From: Candidatus Marinacidobacterales bacterium
Lineage (GTDB): Bacteria; Acidobacteriota; Vicinamibacteria; Marinacidobacterales; DATDRI01
Reading direction: 5' to 3'
DNA: 64,000 nt
Assembly (NCBI GenBank): GCA_965226495.1
Contig: OZ245365.1
Span: 1,536,001-1,600,000, forward strand
The notes under the pieces: model-generated
The model's database searches: none
Told to the model about the DNA's origin: nothing
The model's input: only the letters and a program-made list of their open reading frames with translations
Shown: positions 2,718-61,723 of the stretch, in pieces
Layout: each line of letters begins with the position of its first letter
Position numbering within the stretch: position 1 is the first letter of the stretch
Position numbers and translations under genes: made by a program

Positions 2718-3974
2718 ATGTCGAGTCAACCGTTCTACCTTCGCGAGGGCAAACTCCATTGCGAGGACTGCTCGTTGGAGCGGATCCCATCGTCGGTGAC
2801 CACGCCCTTTTATGTTTACAGCACCCGCGAAGTGGTCGAGAGGTTTCGACGCCTCGATAGGGCCTTCGCCGCTCACCCTCATCTCCTTTGCTACGCTCTG
2901 AAGGCGAACTCTCAACCAGCCTTGCTTCGATTGCTGGTCGCCGAAGGGGCAGGGGCTGAAGTCGTATCCGGCGCGGAGCTTGCGCTTGCTCTCAAGGTGG
3001 GGTTCCCCGCCGAGCGGATCGTGTTCTCTGGCGTCGGCAAGGCGGAATGGGAGCTTCAGGCCGGGCTCCAAGCTGACATCCTACTTTTTCACGCCGAGTC
3101 CGAAGGTGAGGTGATTCTTCTCGATCGTTTGGCGCATCAGGCCGAGCGCCGCGCGCGGGTGAGCATTCGCATAAATCCCGACATCGATGCTGGTACGCAT
3201 CCCCACATCGCGACCGGCGTCCAAACCGCCAAATTCGGGCTGGATTTGGATACGGCGATGGCGCTCTATGGCCGACATGAGGAGTTTCCAAACCTCGAAT
3301 TTTGCGGGATCCACACCCACATCGGGTCGCAAATTACCTCCTTGCATCCTTTGGGTGAAGCCGCGCGGACATTGGCGAAGGCGATCGGCGAGCTGAAGAC
3401 CCAAGGGGTCACGATTACACAGGTCGACATCGGGGGAGGGCTCGGAATCGCCTATGGCGAGGAGCCCGCACCCGAGTTCAGCGCGTATGCGCACGAAGTG
3501 CTTCCCTGGCTCACCGGCACCGGGGCTCGCGTGATCGTCGAGCCGGGACGTGCTCTCCTGGGTCCGGCGGGCGCGTTCGTTGTCAAGGTCCTCTACGTGA
3601 AGCGGGTTCATGACCGAAGTTTTGTCGTGGTCGACGCGGGCATGAACGATCTGCTGCGGCCGGCACTCTACGATGCTTATCACCGCATTGTGCCAATCGA
3701 ACCGCGCGAGGGTGCGCGAGAAACGGTCGATATCGTTGGGGCGGTCTGCGAGACCTCGGACACGTTTGGGCGCGATCGGCTACTGGTCGATCCTCGCCCC
3801 GGCGATCTACTGGCGGTCTTGGACGCCGGCGCCTACGGCTACGCAATGAGCTCCAATTACAATTTGCGCCCGCGTCCGGCGGAAGTGTTGGTCGACGGTG
3901 GCGAGTTCCGCATCGTTCGCGATGCCGAGAGCACGGAGGATCTTCTGGCGCGTGAGCTCGGGGAAGAGTCGTGA
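2718..3974 (+). CDS. lysA: Diaminopimelate decarboxylase
   Basis: CYALKAN (PLP Lys), HIATG..TAKFG, HTHIGSQI, EPGRAL, GAVCETSD, GAYGYAMSSNYN. Confidence 0.95.
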   Translation: MSSQPFYLREGKLHCEDCSLERIPSSVTTPFYVYSTREVVERFRRLDRAFAAHPHLLCYALKANSQPALLRLLVAEGAGAEVVSGAELALALKVGFPAERIVFSGVGKAEWELQAGLQADILLFHAESEGEVILLDRLAHQAERRARVSIRINPDIDAGTHPHIATGVQTAKFGLDLDTAMALYGRHEEFPNLEFCGIHTHIGSQITSLHPLGEAARTLAKAIGELKTQGVTITQVDIGGGLGIAYGEEPAPEFSAYAHEVLPWLTGTGARVIVEPGRALLGPAGAFVVKVLYVKRVHDRSFVVVDAGMNDLLRPALYDAYHRIVPIEPREGARETVDIVGAVCETSDTFGRDRLLVDPRPGDLLAVLDAGAYGYAMSSNYNLRPRPAEVLVDGGEFRIVRDAESTEDLLARELGEES

Positions 3975-4477
3975 GCAACACCCGATGGGCGGCGCTAGCT
4001 CTCGTCGTGATGGCGGTGGTTGTCTCGGTGTCTCGGTTTCTCACTGGAGAGCCTTCGATGGATGTGGTTCTCCGAGTGGTAATCCAGATTCTGGTTTTTT
4101 GGCCGATCAAGGGGGCCCTGATTCGATTCCTCGGCGGAGCTCGCCCCTACCGGAGCGCTCTGGCAGCCAACTCGTCCTCGGAGCTCATCGGATTGGGATT
4201 TCCGCTTGCCGCGTTGGGTGGACTATGGCCGGCTCTCATCGCGAGCTTCTTCTTGTCTAGCGGCATCGAGGGGCTGACTTTCAACGCTGTCGGCACGGCC
4301 AACCCGAAAACCAGCGTCAGCATGGCCGTCTACGTCAACTTCTTCGTCCACCTGTTGATGGCGGGTATAACTCTATGGGATCCGCGACCGCTGGTGGGGG
4401 GCACGGTCATCTTCCTAGCGTTCATAGTTTTTATTCTTCCCATATTCTTGGTTTCGCGTCCCGTGCCTGCGTCTTGA
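3971..4477 (+). CDS. Hypothetical integral membrane protein
   Basis: About 5 hydrophobic segments; GTGA overlap with the lysA stop. Confidence 0.65.
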   Translation: MSNTRWAALALVVMAVVVSVSRFLTGEPSMDVVLRVVIQILVFWPIKGALIRFLGGARPYRSALAANSSSELIGLGFPLAALGGLWPALIASFFLSSGIEGLTFNAVGTANPKTSVSMAVYVNFFVHLLMAGITLWDPRPLVGGTVIFLAFIVFILPIFLVSRPVPAS

Positions 4478-4523
4478 AGTGGAAAGTTATACTGACGGAG
4501 TGACAAGTTTTCCGGGGGGCTAG

Positions 4524-5303
4524 ATGAATCGCAGAGAGTTTCTGAAGAATTCGACTGCTGTCGGTGGGATGCTCGCGACGCCGCCGCTTTGGCTCTGTTC
4601 GCGTGGCGAGGCGAAGCAACGTTCTTATCGACCCGGCGACGAGGTCGACTCTAGCGTCTCTTTTCTGGATCCCGAGGGGCGGGCGGTTACCTTGGCCGAC
4701 CAAATAGACGGATCCACCAAGGTCCTGTATCTCATCATCTTTGGAGGCGCCTACGCGAAGAAGAAGCCGGACAAACGTGGCCGCCTCTGGTGTGGGGACA
4801 GCTCGGACGATATGGCGGTACATCGAACCGTGTATTTTAACTATGCCGGCGAGGGGGTGACGTTCGTTCCTGTCGCCACGCCTCCCGTTTACAGCACCGG
4901 TTATGGTTTCAAGGAGGATGTCTTCTTAGTCGAGCCGGAGAACTCCGCAGCTTATCAGAGTGCGCTTGCGGAGTTCATCGAAAAGACGGAGGCGTTGAAG
5001 CAAGACGGGACTCTTCCTTTTGACGCGGTCTTCTACGATCCGCGCTTTCGCTTGCTCGACAATCCCAGTGAGCACGAGCATGTCCCGGCGTACGGAACGA
5101 TCCATCCCTGGCAGGGGCATTTCAAGTGGTTCGAGGACGAACAGCGATACGGCACTCCCACGATTTGGCTCCTGGACGCCAAGTTACGAGTTATTCGTAC
5201 GCCCTTTTGGGGAAACGTTTACGAGGGGGTGCCGGTTCAGATCAATTACACCGTGCACGATGTCATTCGGGCACTCGATGAAGCTCTCGAGGCAGCCGAT
5301 TAA
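4524..5303 (+). CDS. Tat-exported thioredoxin/peroxiredoxin-like fold protein (CxxS)
   Basis: MNRREFLK twin-arginine signal; 'PGDEV...FLDPEGRAVTLAD', 'WCGDS' and 'GTPTIWLLD' resemble the AhpC/TlpA layout. Confidence 0.6.
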   Translation: MNRREFLKNSTAVGGMLATPPLWLCSRGEAKQRSYRPGDEVDSSVSFLDPEGRAVTLADQIDGSTKVLYLIIFGGAYAKKKPDKRGRLWCGDSSDDMAVHRTVYFNYAGEGVTFVPVATPPVYSTGYGFKEDVFLVEPENSAAYQSALAEFIEKTEALKQDGTLPFDAVFYDPRFRLLDNPSEHEHVPAYGTIHPWQGHFKWFEDEQRYGTPTIWLLDAKLRVIRTPFWGNVYEGVPVQINYTVHDVIRALDEALEAAD

Positions 5304-19030: not shown

Positions 19031-20128
19031 ATGCGAGTCGCCGCTCTGGTCGCGGCTCTTCTCTCCGTCGGATGCACGGCCGCGGAGGAACTCTCTCTCG
19101 ATCGAATCAAGCTCCCGCCCGGATTCGAGATTCATCTCTACGCGACAGGGGTTCCCAATGCCCGCTCGATGGCTCTTGGGCCCAACGGCACCCTGTTCGT
19201 GGGCACGATGGACGAAGGCAATGTCTATGCGGTCCTCGACCAAGACCAAGACGGCAGCGCCGACAAGATCATCACTCTCATCGAAGAGTGGAACATGCCC
19301 AACGGGGTGGCGATTCGGGAGGGGGCGCTGTATGTCGCGGCAGTGAATCGGGTCGTCCGTTTCGATAACATCGAGTCACATCTGGAAGATCTTCCCACTC
19401 CGGTTGTGATTCGCGACGATTTGCCTCAAGACGAGTCCCATGGTTGGAAGTTCATCGCTTTCGGGCCGGACGGCAAACTCTACGTGCCGGTAGGCGCACC
19501 CTGTAACATCTGCGAGCGAGACGATGAACGCTATGCCTCGATTCTTCAGATGAATCCTGACGGGACGGACCTGCAAGTCTATGCGCGGGGCGTGCGGAAC
19601 ACCGTCGGATTCTCCTGGCACCCCGAGACCGAAGAGCTGTGGTTCACTGACAATGGCCGAGACCAGTTGGGAGATGATATTCCTCCCGACGAGCTCAACC
19701 ACGCCCCTGCTCCAGGGCTACATTTTGGCTTTCCCTATTGTCATGGCGGCAAATTTCTCGACCCAAAGTTCGGAGGCGATCGAGCCTGCGATGAGTTCGT
19801 GCCGCCGGCGAAGGCGCTCGGCCCTCACGTCGCGGCGCTTGGCATGCGTTTCTACACCGGGTCGATGTTTCCTGAGACATATCGAGGCCAGATTTTCTTC
19901 GCCGAGCACGGGTCGTGGAATCGAAGCAACAAGATCGGTTACCGGGTGATGCGCGTGGAGCTGGATGGAGATCAGCCGGTAAGCTACGAAACCTTCGCCG
20001 AAGGCTGGCTGCAGGGCGAAGAGGCCTGGGGCCGACCAGTCGATGTCCTAGTCATGCCGGATGGGGCGCTTCTCGTTTCTGATGACGAAGCCGGTGTTAT
20101 CTACCGGATTGTATACAAGGCTTCCTGA
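19031..20128 (+). CDS. Sorbosone / PQQ-dependent soluble sugar dehydrogenase family lipoprotein
   Basis: HGWKFIAFGPDGKLYVPVGAPCNIC, GVRNTVG, TDNGRD, EHGSWNR, GRPVDV. Confidence 0.88.
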   Translation: MRVAALVAALLSVGCTAAEELSLDRIKLPPGFEIHLYATGVPNARSMALGPNGTLFVGTMDEGNVYAVLDQDQDGSADKIITLIEEWNMPNGVAIREGALYVAAVNRVVRFDNIESHLEDLPTPVVIRDDLPQDESHGWKFIAFGPDGKLYVPVGAPCNICERDDERYASILQMNPDGTDLQVYARGVRNTVGFSWHPETEELWFTDNGRDQLGDDIPPDELNHAPAPGLHFGFPYCHGGKFLDPKFGGDRACDEFVPPAKALGPHVAALGMRFYTGSMFPETYRGQIFFAEHGSWNRSNKIGYRVMRVELDGDQPVSYETFAEGWLQGEEAWGRPVDVLVMPDGALLVSDDEAGVIYRIVYKAS

Positions 20129-40285: not shown

Positions 40286-40384
40286 TAGCTCTTTTCCCGA
40301 TCGCCCATCCCTAATCGAGCCGAAAGCCGGGTCGGAGTGCGCTTCGAGGGGAGGCTTCTTCCCGTTTTTTTCGTCTCTTCGAAT

Positions 40385-41909
40385 GTGTTCGCGCGTACGG
40401 TAACCGGGGCGACTCGGGGCATCGAAGGACTCCTCGTGCGGGTGGAAGTCTACCTGAGTGACGGCGTTCCGTCGTTCCGCACGGTGGGACTACCCGACGC
40501 ATCGGTGCGGGAGGCGCGCGAAAGGGTTCGAGCCGCGCTCCGTACGAATGGTTTCGAATATCCGGCTGGGAGGATTACGCTCAGCCTCGCTCCAGCGGAG
40601 GTCCCCAAACAGGGCGCGGGATTCGACCTGGCGGTCGCTATCGGTCTGCTGGCGGCGCGGGACCACGTGCCCACTGACAGGCTGAGCAGCACGCTCTTGA
40701 TGGGCGAGCTGGCGCTCGACGGGACGCTTCGTCCAGTGAGAGGGGTACTTCCGGTGGCGGTCGAGGCTCGATCGGAAGGCGTTCGGATGGCGGTGGTTCC
40801 GCAAGCAAACGGAGTGGAGGCGGCCATGGTGGATGGTCTGGCAGTGTATTCGGTCGGTTCTCTCCGAGAGGCGGTAGATCTCTTGTCCGCGGAGAACCTT
40901 CCAGCGCCCCTGCCAACGAACAGGACCTATCTGTCGAGGCGGAAGCCGTTGCGCGACCTCGCGGACGTAAAGGCTCAGTACCAAGCAAAACGGGCTCTCG
41001 AGTTGGTCGCCGCCGGGGGTCACAACCTACTCTTCTATGGACCTCCCGGCGCGGGCAAGACGTTACTCGCACGTTGCCTGCCCTCGCTGCTGCCCCCGTT
41101 GAGCTTCGATGAAGCGATCGAGGTAACGAAGGTTCATTCCGTTGCCGGGAGACTGCCTCCTAGTGTCGGTTTGTTAACCGATCCGCCGTTTAGGGCCCCG
41201 CACCACACGATTTCTTGGGCGGCGATGGCCGGCGGAGGCATAGGGGCCGATGCCTGGCGAAGTAAGCTTGGCGCATCGAGGCGTCTTGTTCCTGGACGAG
41301 CTCGCCGAGTTTCCCCGTAACGCGCTCGAGGCGCTTCGCCAACCTTTGGAAGAAGGAAGCATTCTTGTGAGCCGCGTCGGTCGATCGGCTCGATTGCCTA
41401 CCGAGTTCGTTCTAGTTGCCGCGATGAATCCCTGTCCGTGCGGATACTCCGGAGCCGAGGCTCGTGGATGCATCTGCTCGCCCGCGGTTGTGAGTCGGTA
41501 CCAGTCGCGGGTCTCTGGGCCCTTGATCGATCGCATCGACCTGCAGGTCTACGTCCGCGCCTTGACCGGCGAGCAAATGCTCGCCTCGCCTTCATCCGAG
41601 CGAAGCTCGGTCGTACGCGACCGAGTGATGAGTGCCAGGGAGTTGCAGAAGGAACGCTTTGCCGGCTCCGGTCATCGTCTCAACGCTGCGATGTCGCCCC
41701 CGGAAGTGATGCGATTCTGCGAGTTGAGCCCCGCCGGAAAGGAATCCCTACGCCAAGCTGTGGATAGCTTGGGTCTTTCGGCGCGCGCGTTCGACCGGAT
41801 ACTCAAGGTGGCGCGAACGATGGCCGATTTGGACGGGGGGGGAAGCATCGAGGACGCACACCTTCACGAGGCCATCCAGTACCGTATCCTGGAGAGTCAG
41901 CAAGCGTAG
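40385..41909 (+). pseudogene. comM: YifB/ComM Mg-chelatase-like AAA+ ATPase, frameshifted at about 41243-41246
   Basis: VGLPDASVREARERV, GPPGAGKT, PFRAPHH, then PGEVSLAHRGVLFLDE, LRQPLE, SGPLIDRID in the next frame; one extra G in ATAGGGGCCG. Confidence 0.85.
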
Positions 41910-41928
41910 CAGGTGTTAGCATCTGCCA

Positions 41929-42132
41929 ATGTCGGACAAGAATGTCCTCGCCAAGGCATCAGACCTCTTCAACCGTAAGCTTTACTTCGAATGTCACGAC
42001 TTGCTTGAAGATGCATGGGCCGGTGCGGGAGCCGTCAGCCGTCGCGCAGGTGCGCCGTCACCGGAGCGACAGGCATGGGGGTGGGGCCCCATGCCATTGA
42101 GAGATGCCGCCGCGAGCACCGGCGAGGCTTAG
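41929..42132 (+). pseudogene. Displaced 5' fragment of DUF309 gene fused to inserted sequence
   Basis: MSDKNVLAKASDLFNRKLYFECHDLLEDAWAGA, then reads into the repeat unit and stops. Confidence 0.7.
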
Positions 42133-42449
42133 GGGTTGCGGTGGGTTTGAACGACGTTCTGGCGAAGGCGTCGGAGCTTTTCAACCGAAAGCTGTATTTC
42201 GAATGTCATGACATCCTAGAGGATGCTTGGGCCGGTGCGGGAGCCGTCAGCCGTCGCGCAGGTGCGCCGTCACCGGAGCGACAGGCATGGGGGTGGGGCC
42301 CCATGCCATTGAGAGATGCCGCCGCGAGCACCGGCGAGGCTTAGGGTTGCGGTGGGTTTGAACGACGTTCTGGCGAAGGCGTCGGAGCTTTTCAACCGAA
42401 AGCTGTATTTCGAATGTCATGACATCCTAGAGGATGCTTGGGCCGGTGC
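42016..42449 (+). repeat. Two tandem 212/211-bp units bounded by TGGGCCGGTGC
   Basis: 11-bp core at 42016, 42228 and 42439; units identical except one G in a G-run. Confidence 0.93.
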
Positions 42450-42717
42450 TCGCGGCCCGGAACGCGATTTCCTCCAAGCGTTGATACACATCGCCGTCGG
42501 CATGTACCACGTGGCGGGGGGAAACCAGAGAGGAGCGGTGAGTCAGCTCGAGCAAGGAGTGCGCGCACTCCAGCCGTTTCGCCCGGACCGCGAAGGACTC
42601 GATGTGGAGCGCCTCATCATCGGCGCCGCGCGGTGTCTCGAGAAGTTCGAGAACGATGCCTTCCCGGATTGGACCGCGGAGGACATTCCGAGGATGAATT
42701 ACCGCCGATTGGTGTAG
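42352..42717 (+). CDS. DUF309 domain protein
   Basis: LFN...YFECHDILEDAW.....ERDFLQALIHIAVGMYH...GN..GA. Confidence 0.85.
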   Translation: MGLNDVLAKASELFNRKLYFECHDILEDAWAGARGPERDFLQALIHIAVGMYHVAGGNQRGAVSQLEQGVRALQPFRPDREGLDVERLIIGAARCLEKFENDAFPDWTAEDIPRMNYRRLV

Positions 42718-42778
42718 GATCGGCATTCCGCCCGGTTCGACGCCAGGCCCAGAATGTCCAAGAATAATTGAGACACCA

Positions 42779-44182
42779 ATGAAGAAGGCGTATGTCGTAG
42801 CACTGGTCCTCCTCGCCGGCCTGTTTCTATATCTGGATGTCGCCGTTCAGCGAGCCGATCGAAAGGCCGATCGAAACGATGTCGCGGCGGGGTCGGCGTA
42901 TAGGGTCATGATCCTCGGCTTCGATGGAACGGATCCCGAGTTTCTCCACTCCTTGATGTCGCAGGGCAAGCTGCCGAACTTCGAGCGGCTCCATCGGGAA
43001 GGAGCCTATGGCCCTTGCCGCACGTTCAAACCGACGAAGTCGAATGTGATTTGGACTTCCATAGCGACGGGCAAGCGAATGGAAAAACACGGCATCATCG
43101 ATTGGATGGTGCTCTCCGATGATGGCCAGGAAAGGCTTCTGACAACGGGAAACCAAAGGCGCACCGAGGCGCTATGGAATATTGCGACAGCAGCCGGGAA
43201 AAGCGTGCAACTGATCAACTGGTGGGCGACTTGGCCTGCGGAACACGTGAATGGTGAGATGGTCTCGAATCATTTCACAAAAACACGCAAGACTCGCATC
43301 GATGAAGCGACATATCCAGCGACTCTCAATGACGAGTTGGAACCACTCGCCGCCTTCGGAGACGCCGGAGTTCACGAGGAGATGCGTGCGGCGGGAATCC
43401 CGGTGTATTCGGACGAGCTCGCGGAGAGTGTCTTTCGTCCTTCCGAGAATTTCAGGAGGCGTTTCGAGGCGTCGGTAGAGCTATTCGCCGAGGATATGCT
43501 CGTCGAGAAAGTTGCGAGTCACCTCATGGAGACCCGCGGGCAAAGGGATCTCTTTGGAGTGATCTTCCGGAACGCGGACATTTTTACACACTTCCTGTGG
43601 CGATTCATCGATGTGCGCTTAGCCAAGCAAGTGTACGACCACCTCAACGAGGATAAGTTGCCGCTCACTTCAGAGATCGAGCAGGCGATGAACGAAGCCT
43701 ACGCCGCGGTCTTGCAGGCGGTGTACATTCATGAAGACCGCCGACTGGGGCGGCTGATGGCGATGGCCGGGCCGGACACGGTGGTGATCGTGGTTTCCGA
43801 TCATGGGTTTCAGTTCCGGAACTATGGCTTTTATCACTACGCTCTAGGTCCGCCGGGGGCGAGAGCGCCAGGAAGTGTGGAAACTTTGGCCCCCCCTGGG
43901 GTAATTTTCCTATGGGGTCCGCCGATCCGGGGCGGCACCAAGCTCACCCACGCGACGGTGTTCGATGTTTCGCCAACCGCCCTGTATCTTCTAGGGCTGC
44001 CGGTCGGGGAGGACATGGACGGGAGGGTTCTGGTCGAAGCCCTTGCCCCTGAACTACTTGCGGAAAGACCCGTCGAGTGGACTCCTACTCACGACAGCGG
44101 CATGCGGGGAGGAAAGCCTCGCCGAAGCCCCATCGACAAGGATATTTTGAAAGAACTGCAAACCCTCGGATACGTGTCTTGA
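42779..44182 (+). CDS. Alkaline phosphatase superfamily (type I phosphodiesterase/NPP-like) protein
   Basis: ILGFDG, LPNF, PTKSNVIWTSIATG, NWWATWPA, VSDHGF, DVSPT, C-terminal LQTLGYV. Confidence 0.82.
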   Translation: MKKAYVVALVLLAGLFLYLDVAVQRADRKADRNDVAAGSAYRVMILGFDGTDPEFLHSLMSQGKLPNFERLHREGAYGPCRTFKPTKSNVIWTSIATGKRMEKHGIIDWMVLSDDGQERLLTTGNQRRTEALWNIATAAGKSVQLINWWATWPAEHVNGEMVSNHFTKTRKTRIDEATYPATLNDELEPLAAFGDAGVHEEMRAAGIPVYSDELAESVFRPSENFRRRFEASVELFAEDMLVEKVASHLMETRGQRDLFGVIFRNADIFTHFLWRFIDVRLAKQVYDHLNEDKLPLTSEIEQAMNEAYAAVLQAVYIHEDRRLGRLMAMAGPDTVVIVVSDHGFQFRNYGFYHYALGPPGARAPGSVETLAPPGVIFLWGPPIRGGTKLTHATVFDVSPTALYLLGLPVGEDMDGRVLVEALAPELLAERPVEWTPTHDSGMRGGKPRRSPIDKDILKELQTLGYVS

Positions 44183-53317: not shown

Positions 53318-53494
53318 GGGGGCCCCACCCCCAGGCGCCGGCCCTCACTCCTCAATTAATGGCGCGGGGCCCCACCCCCACGCCTCATGCTTCGCCGACT
53401 ACGCGACTCCGCATGGGCTCATGGCTGCGTTCGGCCCCTGGCCTCCGCTCGGCAGCTCGCTGCGGCCGGCGGGCGCGCGGGCTGAGGGCTCTCC
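53318..53494. repeat. REP-like element family 1 (GGGGCCCCACCCCC core, two cores)
   Basis: Shares TCAATTAATGGCGCGGGGCCC and GCTGA.GGCTCTCC with 61617-61723; core also at 42072, 42284 and about 37845. Confidence 0.7.
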
Positions 53495-61599: not shown

Positions 61600-61616
61600 A
61601 ATTTAGTGCTCGCTCT

Positions 61617-61723
61617 TCAATTAATGGCGCGGGGCCCAGGCTTCTATTAGTCGCGCCCGCACTCCACGTTCGGGCGCTAGCCGCTACGCCGCCTTCGCGG
61701 CTGCGCGGCAGCTGAAGGCTCTC
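61617..61723. repeat. REP-like element family 1 copy
   Basis: Ends shared with the element at 53352-53494. Confidence 0.6.

Follow-up and report, generated by a model that had tools for sequence, protein, structure and literature searches.

A dispersed two-hairpin repeat at a tripled DUF309 gene start in a Marinacidobacterales genome

Introduction

IS110 elements are about 1.3 kb long and have a bridge RNA with target-binding and donor-binding loops. In RNA phage MS2, the textbook case of translational coupling, a long-range stem is opened by an upstream frame. Shyamala, Schneider and Ames are said to have reported, in 1990, that duplication joins lie at REPs in Salmonella. According to the portions of PMC3733652 that deal with their location and ends, REPs occur occasionally inside genes, and GTAG and CGTC end tags mark two REP superfamilies. 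Template switching has been described for bacterial inverted repeats (PMC5941160) and as a source of perfect hairpin arms (PMC8794818).

The window analysed here is a stretch of 64,000 nucleotides from a Candidatus Marinacidobacterales bacterium of the Vicinamibacteria (assembly GCA_965226495.1, contig OZ245365.1, positions 1,536,001 to 1,600,000). A sequence-only reading had proposed that an inserted unit in this window, X, contains a 15-nt antisense copy of its own target site and thus resembles a guide pairing with both flanks, as intron internal guide sequences or IS110 bridge-RNA target loops do; a long-range mRNA stem and an inverted repeat that seeded a duplication were named as alternatives. 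The flagged feature would have meant a new RNA-guided insertion system; the evidence presented below says otherwise, and we do not regard X as a self-standing insertion that carries its own guide. The reading that we prefer, at a probability of about one half, is that the locus is a rearrangement scar made of a REP-like core and a tail found only here, that the 15-mer is a by-product of template switching, and that the resulting helix could couple expression of the DUF309 gene to the frames upstream of it.

Results

The 5′ end of a DUF309 gene is tripled at this locus, in the layout A-X-B-X-C, with all parts on the forward strand. Upstream lies a gene for a yifB/comM-like ATPase of the Mg-chelatase family (positions 40337–41909; open reading frames and Pfam ChlI, Mg_chelatase and Mg_chelatase_C), which is read as two overlapping frames (40337–41320 and 41250–41909), the Mg_chelatase match being split at profile positions 95/99. 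A (41929–42026) is the resident DUF309 5′ end: its 33 codons (Pfam DUF309 profile positions 2–29) keep the ancestral position 20 nt past the yifB stop, with a spacer and ATG context that match those of the congener G002, and then run into X1. The resulting A-X1 open frame (41929–42132) encodes 67 aa and ends in a TAG at 42130–42132, 8 nt before the GTG of B. X1 begins with a 78-nt core (42027–42104), assigned to a two-hairpin repeat family by nhmmer (profile positions 2–78, E = 8e-17), by its fold and by family covariation, and continues into a locus-specific tail of 36 nt (42105–42140).

B (42141–42238), the second copy of the gene 5′ end, is identical to C over 106 nt. It is followed by the X2 core (42239–42316; open reading frames and nhmmer), whose last base is the A of an ATG at 42316 in frame with C, and by a second tail (42317–42351; sequence and repeat search), which at 35 nt has one G fewer than the first and forms either a leader or an N-terminal extension of C (open reading frame 42316–42717). 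C itself (42352–42717) is an intact DUF309 gene with a GTG start and 121 aa (Pfam DUF309, E = 3e-22), and its orthologues show 84–91% identity. The end of A is an 11-nt direct repeat, TGGGCCGGTGC (42016–42026), that recurs at 42228–42238 and 42439–42449. These repeats flank a 211/212-nt unit of core, tail and 33 codons, and the second unit is therefore a recent tandem copy. The extra G of the first unit (a GGGG run, as against GGG) breaks the ATG frame; in the second unit, the ATG at 42316 is in frame with the gene. Since the length of the G run differs between the units, and between unitigs of different runs, the N-terminal extension of C is not conserved. A scan of positions 41700–42800 for promoters and terminators returned 0 sites of each.

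The A-X-B-X-C structure is real, and an assembly artefact is ruled out. Logan contigs from four runs, each from a different study, contain the junction of A with X (41700–42045) with 0 mismatches and, likewise without mismatch, the segment leading from C into the rest of the gene (42420–42800). The junction of B with X2 (42209–42257), also with 0 mismatches, is found among the listed contigs of three of the four runs. In all four runs the X+N unit, again without mismatch, is a unitig of 223 or 222 nt at ~1.5–2.6 times the depth of its flanks, and Logan unitigs begin exactly at 42016 or 42228. The stretch is present in 20 rows from 8 studies; no RNA run containing it is listed among 24 runs, and no joints of deletion or one-unit alleles are reported in the contigs of the four runs, contigs being products in which rare variants are dropped.

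Starting 5 nt past the core, each 36- or 35-nt tail carries the 15-mer GCCGCGAGCACCGGC (left arms, 42109–42123 and 42321–42335), which in a repeat search is complementary at 15 of 15 positions to a right arm, GCCGGTGCTCGCGGC, at 42442–42456. The exact antisense copy described in the sequence-only reading is thus borne out for both left arms. The 106-nt repeat D1, over which B and C are 100% identical, ends at 42449, so the right arm is split into 8 nt inside the duplicated unit and 7 nt past it, and the reported 8/7 straddle of the junction is correct as well. The right arm corresponds to codons 31–35 of C, which encode A-G-A-R-G, and 14 of its 15 bases are common to the uninterrupted orthologue on the metagenome contig L027, which is without X.

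To gauge chance, a 50-nt segment was compared with ~590 nt of flanks at 20,000 random genome positions; exact antisense matches of at least 15 nt occurred at 6 of them (3e-4). At this rate ~0.04 such repeats are expected by chance over 122 family copies, a low figure but one that should not be neglected for a repeat that was spotted after the fact. Mismatched pairs of family tails and flanks gave one match of at least 15 nt in ~2,000 pairs. The exact 15-mer occurs four times in the 6.34-Mb genome, three times at the X locus. Near-matches with at most 3 mismatches number 926 genome-wide, and 12 of these lie within 200 nt of a core (3 of the 12 at the X locus), where by our own arithmetic ~10 are expected by chance. 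We also considered the 15-mer as a recurring family module, with GCGAGCAC- or AGCACCGG-type motifs found beside some cores, and rejected this because near-matches are not enriched around cores.

A search with nhmmer gave 151 matches in this genome (G000, a single 6.34-Mb contig, 94.8% complete), 122 of them full length, and the opening 78 nt of X account for one. A further full-length copy in the window lies on the reverse strand at 53352–53428 (nhmmer, E = 5e-17; genome positions 1589352–1589428). The family has an invariant, single-stranded 5′ motif, AGCC-N-T-N-AGC. Across 107 distinct copies, the outer and inner stems of hairpin 1 vary by compensatory changes (pair 15–43: GC 56, CG 41; pair 16–42: UA 43, AU 31, GC 15; pair 24–34: UA 46, CG 38, GC 17), and the top of hairpin 2 is near-invariant (UGGGG-GUGGGG-CCCC). 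Copies commonly end in ATTGA, after which come purine-rich sequence and often an ATG. Similarity of the other copies to X stops at X position ~74–91, and the 15-mer lies outside the conserved core.

Copies often stand in tandem arrays, mosaic with other small modules, and appear to lie mostly between genes and occasionally inside them. GCGAGC-type motifs are common in the modules around cores, and the genome is GC-rich. Family copies were found in 16 of 41 related genomes, a count that includes G000 and the unpublished G007. By a strict pattern, G000 has 77 copies, compared with 23, 8, 3 and 2 in four relatives, a sharp expansion in one genome. Rfam gave no match at E ≤ 1 in positions 41000–43500, and so neither an intron nor a known RNA; at gathering thresholds its only match was a group II intron, in a 16-kb stretch with five family copies.

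Cores lie 0–60 nt upstream of a same-strand, ATG-start frame of at least 250 codons in 22 of 122 cases, compared with 3 of 122 in the opposite orientation and ~6.4% of random sites. This measure replaced a count of frames downstream, which was uninformative in a GC-rich genome (random control, 45%). A frame is open across the core and 60 nt on either side in 75 of 122 copies versus 90% of random sites, by a crude test made in a GC-rich genome without gene calls.

Neither GTAG nor CGTC is an invariant end tag of the family, as judged from the consensus and per-column counts, CGTC being confined to a subfamily with a GTCGC stem. The family consensus has no terminal inverted repeats, and an empty-site comparison, in which an insert of ~133 nt found in front of one G000 gene is missing from G001 and G002 has a different one at that place, revealed no clear short target-site duplication. 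Flank duplications of 46 nt and ~98–106 nt are present at two loci and absent elsewhere. A MITE was rejected as a classification, given the absence of terminal inverted repeats and of a clear, fixed, short target-site duplication. The Y1_Tnp profile has two matches in the genome, at 1.860 Mb and 3.579 Mb, with no listed family copy beside either.

The family resembles REPs and BIMEs in that its 151 copies are short, non-coding, hairpin-forming, often in tandem arrays and, apparently, mostly intergenic, with some inside genes, and in that duplication joins fall at the element. It differs from REPs in having two hairpins and a conserved single-stranded 5′ motif over 78 nt, rather than 20–40 nt; in having no GTAG/CGTC end tag and, among the copies listed, none beside either of the two Y1-transposase genes; and in its strong bias towards the sense orientation immediately upstream of genes. 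The family is a REP-like dispersed repeat, many short non-coding hairpin copies, and is new but of a known kind (REP-type): an undescribed 78-nt two-hairpin family of the Vicinamibacteria with no Rfam match and a sense bias just upstream of genes.

If the tail were a guide, its 15-nt segment should co-vary with each local insertion site. For all 122 full-length copies, the 50 nt after the core were compared with the flanks of that copy (250 nt upstream, 340 nt downstream), and the longest exact antisense match was recorded. Matches longer than 12 nt occurred in 2 of 122 copies, both at the X locus (15 nt). The remaining 120 gave one match of 12 nt, two of 11, six of 10 and otherwise 9 or less; the longest among these are the self-complementary hairpin top, and their distribution equals a null in which tails were paired with the flanks of other copies. 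The tail segment therefore does not co-vary with insertion sites, and on this check, which the sequence-only reading had itself suggested, the guide found no support. That reading had named as contrary evidence a 15-mer shared by all copies whatever their flanks; what we found is that the other copies have no such segment at all. Nor does the description of X as an inserted unit carrying its own guide hold, because its 78 nt are a 151-copy repeat and the 15-mer lies outside the core.

The IS110 domains PF01548 and PF02371 have 0 matches each in the single-contig, 94.8% complete genome (the controls gave matches in 6 of 14 genomes), and the open reading frame list contains no IS110-type recombinase frame near X. 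X has no more in common with IS110 bridge RNAs than the concept of a segment, carried by the element, that is complementary to a target; it differs in a genome without a DEDD recombinase, in an element of 78–113 nt rather than ~1.3 kb and in other copies without complementarity. As with the internal guide sequence of a group I intron, a segment in the inserted DNA could pair across the junction, but no catalytic core fits into 78–113 nt, Rfam returns no intron and the repeat is dispersed in 151 copies. Within the 11-nt ambiguity of the junction, each choice that ends the exon in U leaves an intron ending in T rather than G; with no Rfam intron match either, the earlier judgement that a standard group I intron is unlikely stands. 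The only RVT_1 match is that of an ordinary group II intron 3.2 Mb away. A link to its reverse transcriptase was rejected: family copies do lie 2–10 kb from this intron, but similar clusters occur elsewhere. A guide like that of an intron or an IS110 bridge-RNA loop is thus not supported, for want of co-variation, of an IS110 domain and of an Rfam match, and the guide reading is largely refuted by the 122-copy test.

The join between a gene start and a family core recurs. A sensitive direct-repeat screen covered the flanks of all family matches in G000, and 34 loci around family copies (41 family matches) were screened in four relatives. At ~792.14–792.43 kb of G000, a 46-nt repeat (45/46 identical) flanks a core with a 42-nt tail; it takes in codons 1–15 of an alcohol-dehydrogenase-family gene (Pfam) and the single base that precedes the ATG. 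At the same site G001 has an empty spacer of 23 nt, and G002 has element and leader without the duplication. The third case, locus L085 of G002, is a 259-nt tandem unit of element, leader and codons 1–38 of a gene for an enoyl-CoA hydratase (Pfam). The other match of the screen in relatives, L099, is only a repeated hairpin module and was set aside.

All three joins fall at or in the family 5′ motif, (G)AGCC-N-TCAGC, where coding region passes into motif as ...GGTGC/GGGAGCC, ...GGCCGA/GAGCC and ...AATGC/CTCAGC (slash, join). At each locus, the truncated upstream frame stops in the stop-rich 3′ part of the element, shortly before the regenerated start. In three independent cases a duplicated gene 5′ end is joined to the 5′ edge of the family, which makes that edge a recurrent join point. 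An inverted repeat between tail and junction is absent at the 792-kb locus and at L085, two loci of the same topology, and is thus not a regular product of the process.

The two versions of the DUF309 5′ end differ in ancestry. One DUF309 gene, without interruption, follows yifB after ~20–27 nt in the congeners G001 and G002 and on the more closely related metagenome contig L027. There are 26 differences between A and C over 98 sites, nearly all of them synonymous from codon 6 on (codons 6–33: pS 0.75, pN 0.046). Over nt 46–98, A shows 5 differences from L027 and 11–14 from the G001 type, and C shows 4–7 from the G001 type and 9 from L027; over nt 1–45, C has 19–23 differences from every close relative. 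Because A groups with L027 and, over nt 46–98, C with the G001 type, the 5′ end of C is not a drifted in-place copy of A; and because A is without decay, the divergence of A and C is older than the rearrangement. By these alignments, another lineage of the DUF309 gene appears to have supplied the 5′ end of C along with X and the tail. The history of C may be mosaic, import by recombination being one option.

In G003, which belongs to a different genus, family elements ending in ...CCCCATGCCATTGAGTGATGCC abut the start codon of a DUF309 gene, so an element next to a gene start does occur naturally and could represent the type of donor involved. Among 55 genomes of the order there is no donor of the tail plus the C-type 5′ end (the best non-self match is G001, at 84% and in the coding part only), and tail homologues are absent from these 55 genomes and from 21 metagenome loci. 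A reciprocal single crossover (Campbell-type, with a 212-nt circle) is no longer our favoured history. With G001 and G002 as the only outgroups, too small a set, A looks resident-like in codons 1–15 and foreign-like in codons 16–33, with C reversed, and both switch points of this ‘checkerboard’ fall inside TTCAACCG; L027 is A-like over all 33 codons, however, and a reciprocal crossover is therefore no longer required.

In RNA, the arms are predicted to form a 15-bp GC-rich helix, present in both the minimum free energy (MFE) fold and the centroid fold of positions 42239–42470 (MFE −106.8 kcal/mol, z = −2.3 versus shuffles). The predicted helix encloses the ribosome-binding region and the GTG of C, with the purine-rich stretch that precedes this GTG. 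As there is a single right arm, after C only, the stem encloses the start of C when formed with X2, or B, X2 and C when formed with X1. The long-range mRNA stem put forward earlier as an alternative to a guide is thus recovered in both folds, but around the start of C and not around the start codon of B alone.

Both upstream frames run across the 5′ arm of the helix, and the next GTG lies 8 nt past the stop of A-X and 7 nt past that of B-X, so translation of these frames would open the helix and would thereby couple expression of C to them. On the folding model, such coupling is a reasonable prediction. As in MS2, the downstream start is predicted to lie in a stem whose 5′ arm sits within the final codons of a preceding frame, the stop of which comes a few bases before that start; in contrast to MS2, the upstream frames at the X locus are truncated gene fragments fused to a repeat, not genes, and the coupling is a predicted one.

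Discussion

We read the X locus as a rearrangement scar. The resident DUF309 5′ end (A) dead-ends in X, the junction of A with X being a join at the family 5′ edge. Two 211/212-nt units, each comprising core, tail and a second version of the first 33 codons, follow A, the last continuing into C; the B unit arose very recently as a tandem copy, with the 11-nt direct repeats as its boundaries. The 15-mer would be a short inverted copy of codons 31–35 that a polymerase placed in the leader when it switched templates. Given that the coding arm is constrained and shares 14 of 15 bases with L027, which is without X, it is probably the coding arm that is original and the tail arm that is the copy. 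The position of the arm at the duplication boundary suggests that the 15-mer arose in the same multi-step event as the join. We infer the template-switch origin of the 15-mer, as we do any effect on translation.

The locus resembles described template-switch products in its perfect 15-nt arm, its abrupt ends and its spacing of ~100 nt, and in having one arm in constrained coding sequence and the other in an unconstrained leader. It differs in that the arm coincides with a duplication boundary. A simple template switch does not explain the exact 8/7 straddle of that boundary.

Selection could instead have shaped the helix, either as translational control of the displaced DUF309 gene, in which occlusion of the start would be relieved by translation of A-X or B-X, or as protection of the mRNA. 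We consider this unlikely. It would fit the recovery of a helix around the GTG and its purine-rich stretch in both folds, the upstream frames that cross the 5′ arm and end 7–8 nt before each GTG, an arrangement kept without mismatch in contigs of four studies, and the leader-type context of the family (sense-strand cores upstream of long ATG frames in 22 of 122 cases, versus 3 of 122 opposite and 6.4% at random). However, no other family copy has tail/downstream complementarity of at least 13 nt, the orthologues do without such a stem, and the frame from the ATG at 42316 hangs on a GGG/GGGG run that varies between the units and between the unitigs of different runs.

Coincidence, a chance match between a GC-rich tail and a GC-rich run of codons that is devoid of mechanistic or functional meaning, is in our view improbable. 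The genome is indeed GC-rich, with GCGAGC-type motifs common around cores, and the ~0.04 matches expected over 122 copies concern a repeat noticed after the fact. The per-site rate of 3e-4 argues against it, as does the fact that the 15-mer is not a recurring family module, and the straddle of the unit boundary adds, by a rough estimate, a restriction to ~15 positions out of ~590.

In a third alternative, the inverted repeat came first, and a single-stranded DNA hairpin between its arms caused a template switch that made the 212-nt unit. One arm does lie exactly at a unit boundary, and hairpin-forming repeats are known replication obstacles (PMC12708500). A hairpin of the two arms would, however, loop out the rest of the tail and N, or ~121–136 nt with the arms, which does not match the 211/212 nt of the unit. 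At its other end the unit is bounded by the 5′ edge of the core, which lies 82 nt upstream of the left arm; the B unit is fully accounted for by slippage at the 11-nt direct repeats; and two other loci were duplicated without such a repeat. Seeding of the duplication by the repeat, as the sequence-only reading had offered, thus predicts the wrong size and boundaries for the unit and is highly unlikely, while the reverse, a switch that created the repeat, is plausible.

We give very little weight to the possibility that the family is a mobile structured RNA or single strand, its ends defined, which is copied into 5′ coding regions by primed template switching, with the 15-nt complementarity as an accidental guide rather than an evolved one. 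A nick in the template strand would be extended on the gene’s own transcript to its 5′ end, and synthesis would then jump to the element, the complementarity of tail and target being the footprint of the annealing that positioned this one insertion. If true, this would account for a duplicated segment that, at two loci, starts at the start codon and extends as far as the join, and for joins that invariably fall on the 5′ edge of the element.

A true guide, in which the 15-mer of X pairs with both target flanks and directs insertion or splicing in the manner of an IS110 bridge RNA or intron internal guide sequence, is barely credible: complementarity does span the junction exactly, a structured element with strong covariation makes an RNA or single-strand form plausible and the family has expanded in G000 (77 strict-pattern copies versus 23, 8, 3 and 2), but neither the 120 other full-length copies nor the two loci of the same topology show co-variation, PF01548 and PF02371 are without a match in the genome and Rfam without one at E ≤ 1, the core is 78 nt without coding capacity, the splice-site rules of group I introns do not fit and the sole reverse transcriptase is that of the group II intron 3.2 Mb off.

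As a rearrangement scar, the X locus belongs with join events that, in a single step, interrupt a gene and restore it downstream of a new leader, and its 15-nt repeat may illustrate how an mRNA helix is created in nature by template switching. Across the genus, the first 33 codons of the DUF309 gene show ~3 times the synonymous divergence of the rest in every close orthologue pair (for example L027–L021, pS 0.69 versus 0.19), which, together with the join events, hints that the 5′ ends of genes can be exchanged among lineages around such repeats.

A dispersed two-hairpin repeat family

The 78-nt repeat at the DUF309 locus belongs to an undescribed two-hairpin family with 151 copies across the whole genome and no match in Rfam. 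Its hairpins show strong compensatory variation. Within the window, copies lie at 42027-42104, 42239-42316 and, on the minus strand, 53352-53428, with a weaker minus-strand match at 61616-61722. By a strict pattern, the window's genome carries 77 copies, compared with 2-23 in four relatives. Family cores sit immediately 5' of genes with a bias towards the sense strand (22/122 cores, versus 3/122 in the opposite orientation).

Gene-start duplications at family elements

Gene 5' ends are duplicated around family elements elsewhere too. A second locus with the topology of the DUF309 locus lies on the minus strand of the window's own contig (L053, G000 contig C1, about 792140-792430), where an ADH_zinc_N/ADH_N gene has its first 15 codons present twice (45/46 identical). 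The duplicates flank a family core and its 42-nt tail on either side, and the duplication begins 1 nt 5' of the ATG. In a congener (L085, G002:C3:1650100-1651500, about 360-905), a 259-nt tandemly duplicated unit comprises a family element, a leader and codons 1-38 of a gene for enoyl-CoA hydratase, and the join falls within the family 5' motif.

At the DUF309 locus, the two units differ only in a G run, GGGG at window 42133-42136 and GGG at 42345-42347. Among the short-read unitigs listed, the 223-nt form occurs in two runs and the 222-nt form in two others; this may reflect polymorphism within the population instead of a difference between units.

The 5' end of the DUF309 gene

Among the DUF309 orthologs at L021, L022, L027, L028 and window 42352-42717, pS between close orthologs was 0.37-0.82 for codons 6-33 and 0.19-0.28 for codons 34-118. 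The gene's 5' 100 nt have a separate history genus-wide, either faster or recombinant. In another genus (L013, G003:C3:1925410-1928697), an array of family-like elements directly adjoins the DUF309 gene upstream on the same strand, and the end of the last element overlaps the start codon.

Neighbouring and mobile features

The yifB/comM-like gene upstream (window 40337-41909) reads in two overlapping frames, 40337-41320 and 41250-41909, with a break in its Pfam Mg_chelatase domain at profile positions 95/99; the alternatives are a true frameshift and an assembly homopolymer error.

The genome's only reverse-transcriptase match is that of a group II intron on the minus strand (L108, G000:C1:4776000-4792000, at 3476-5053), recognized by Rfam group-II-D1D4-1 and -3 together with a frame of 457 aa. 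Within 2-10 kb of this intron there are five family copies.
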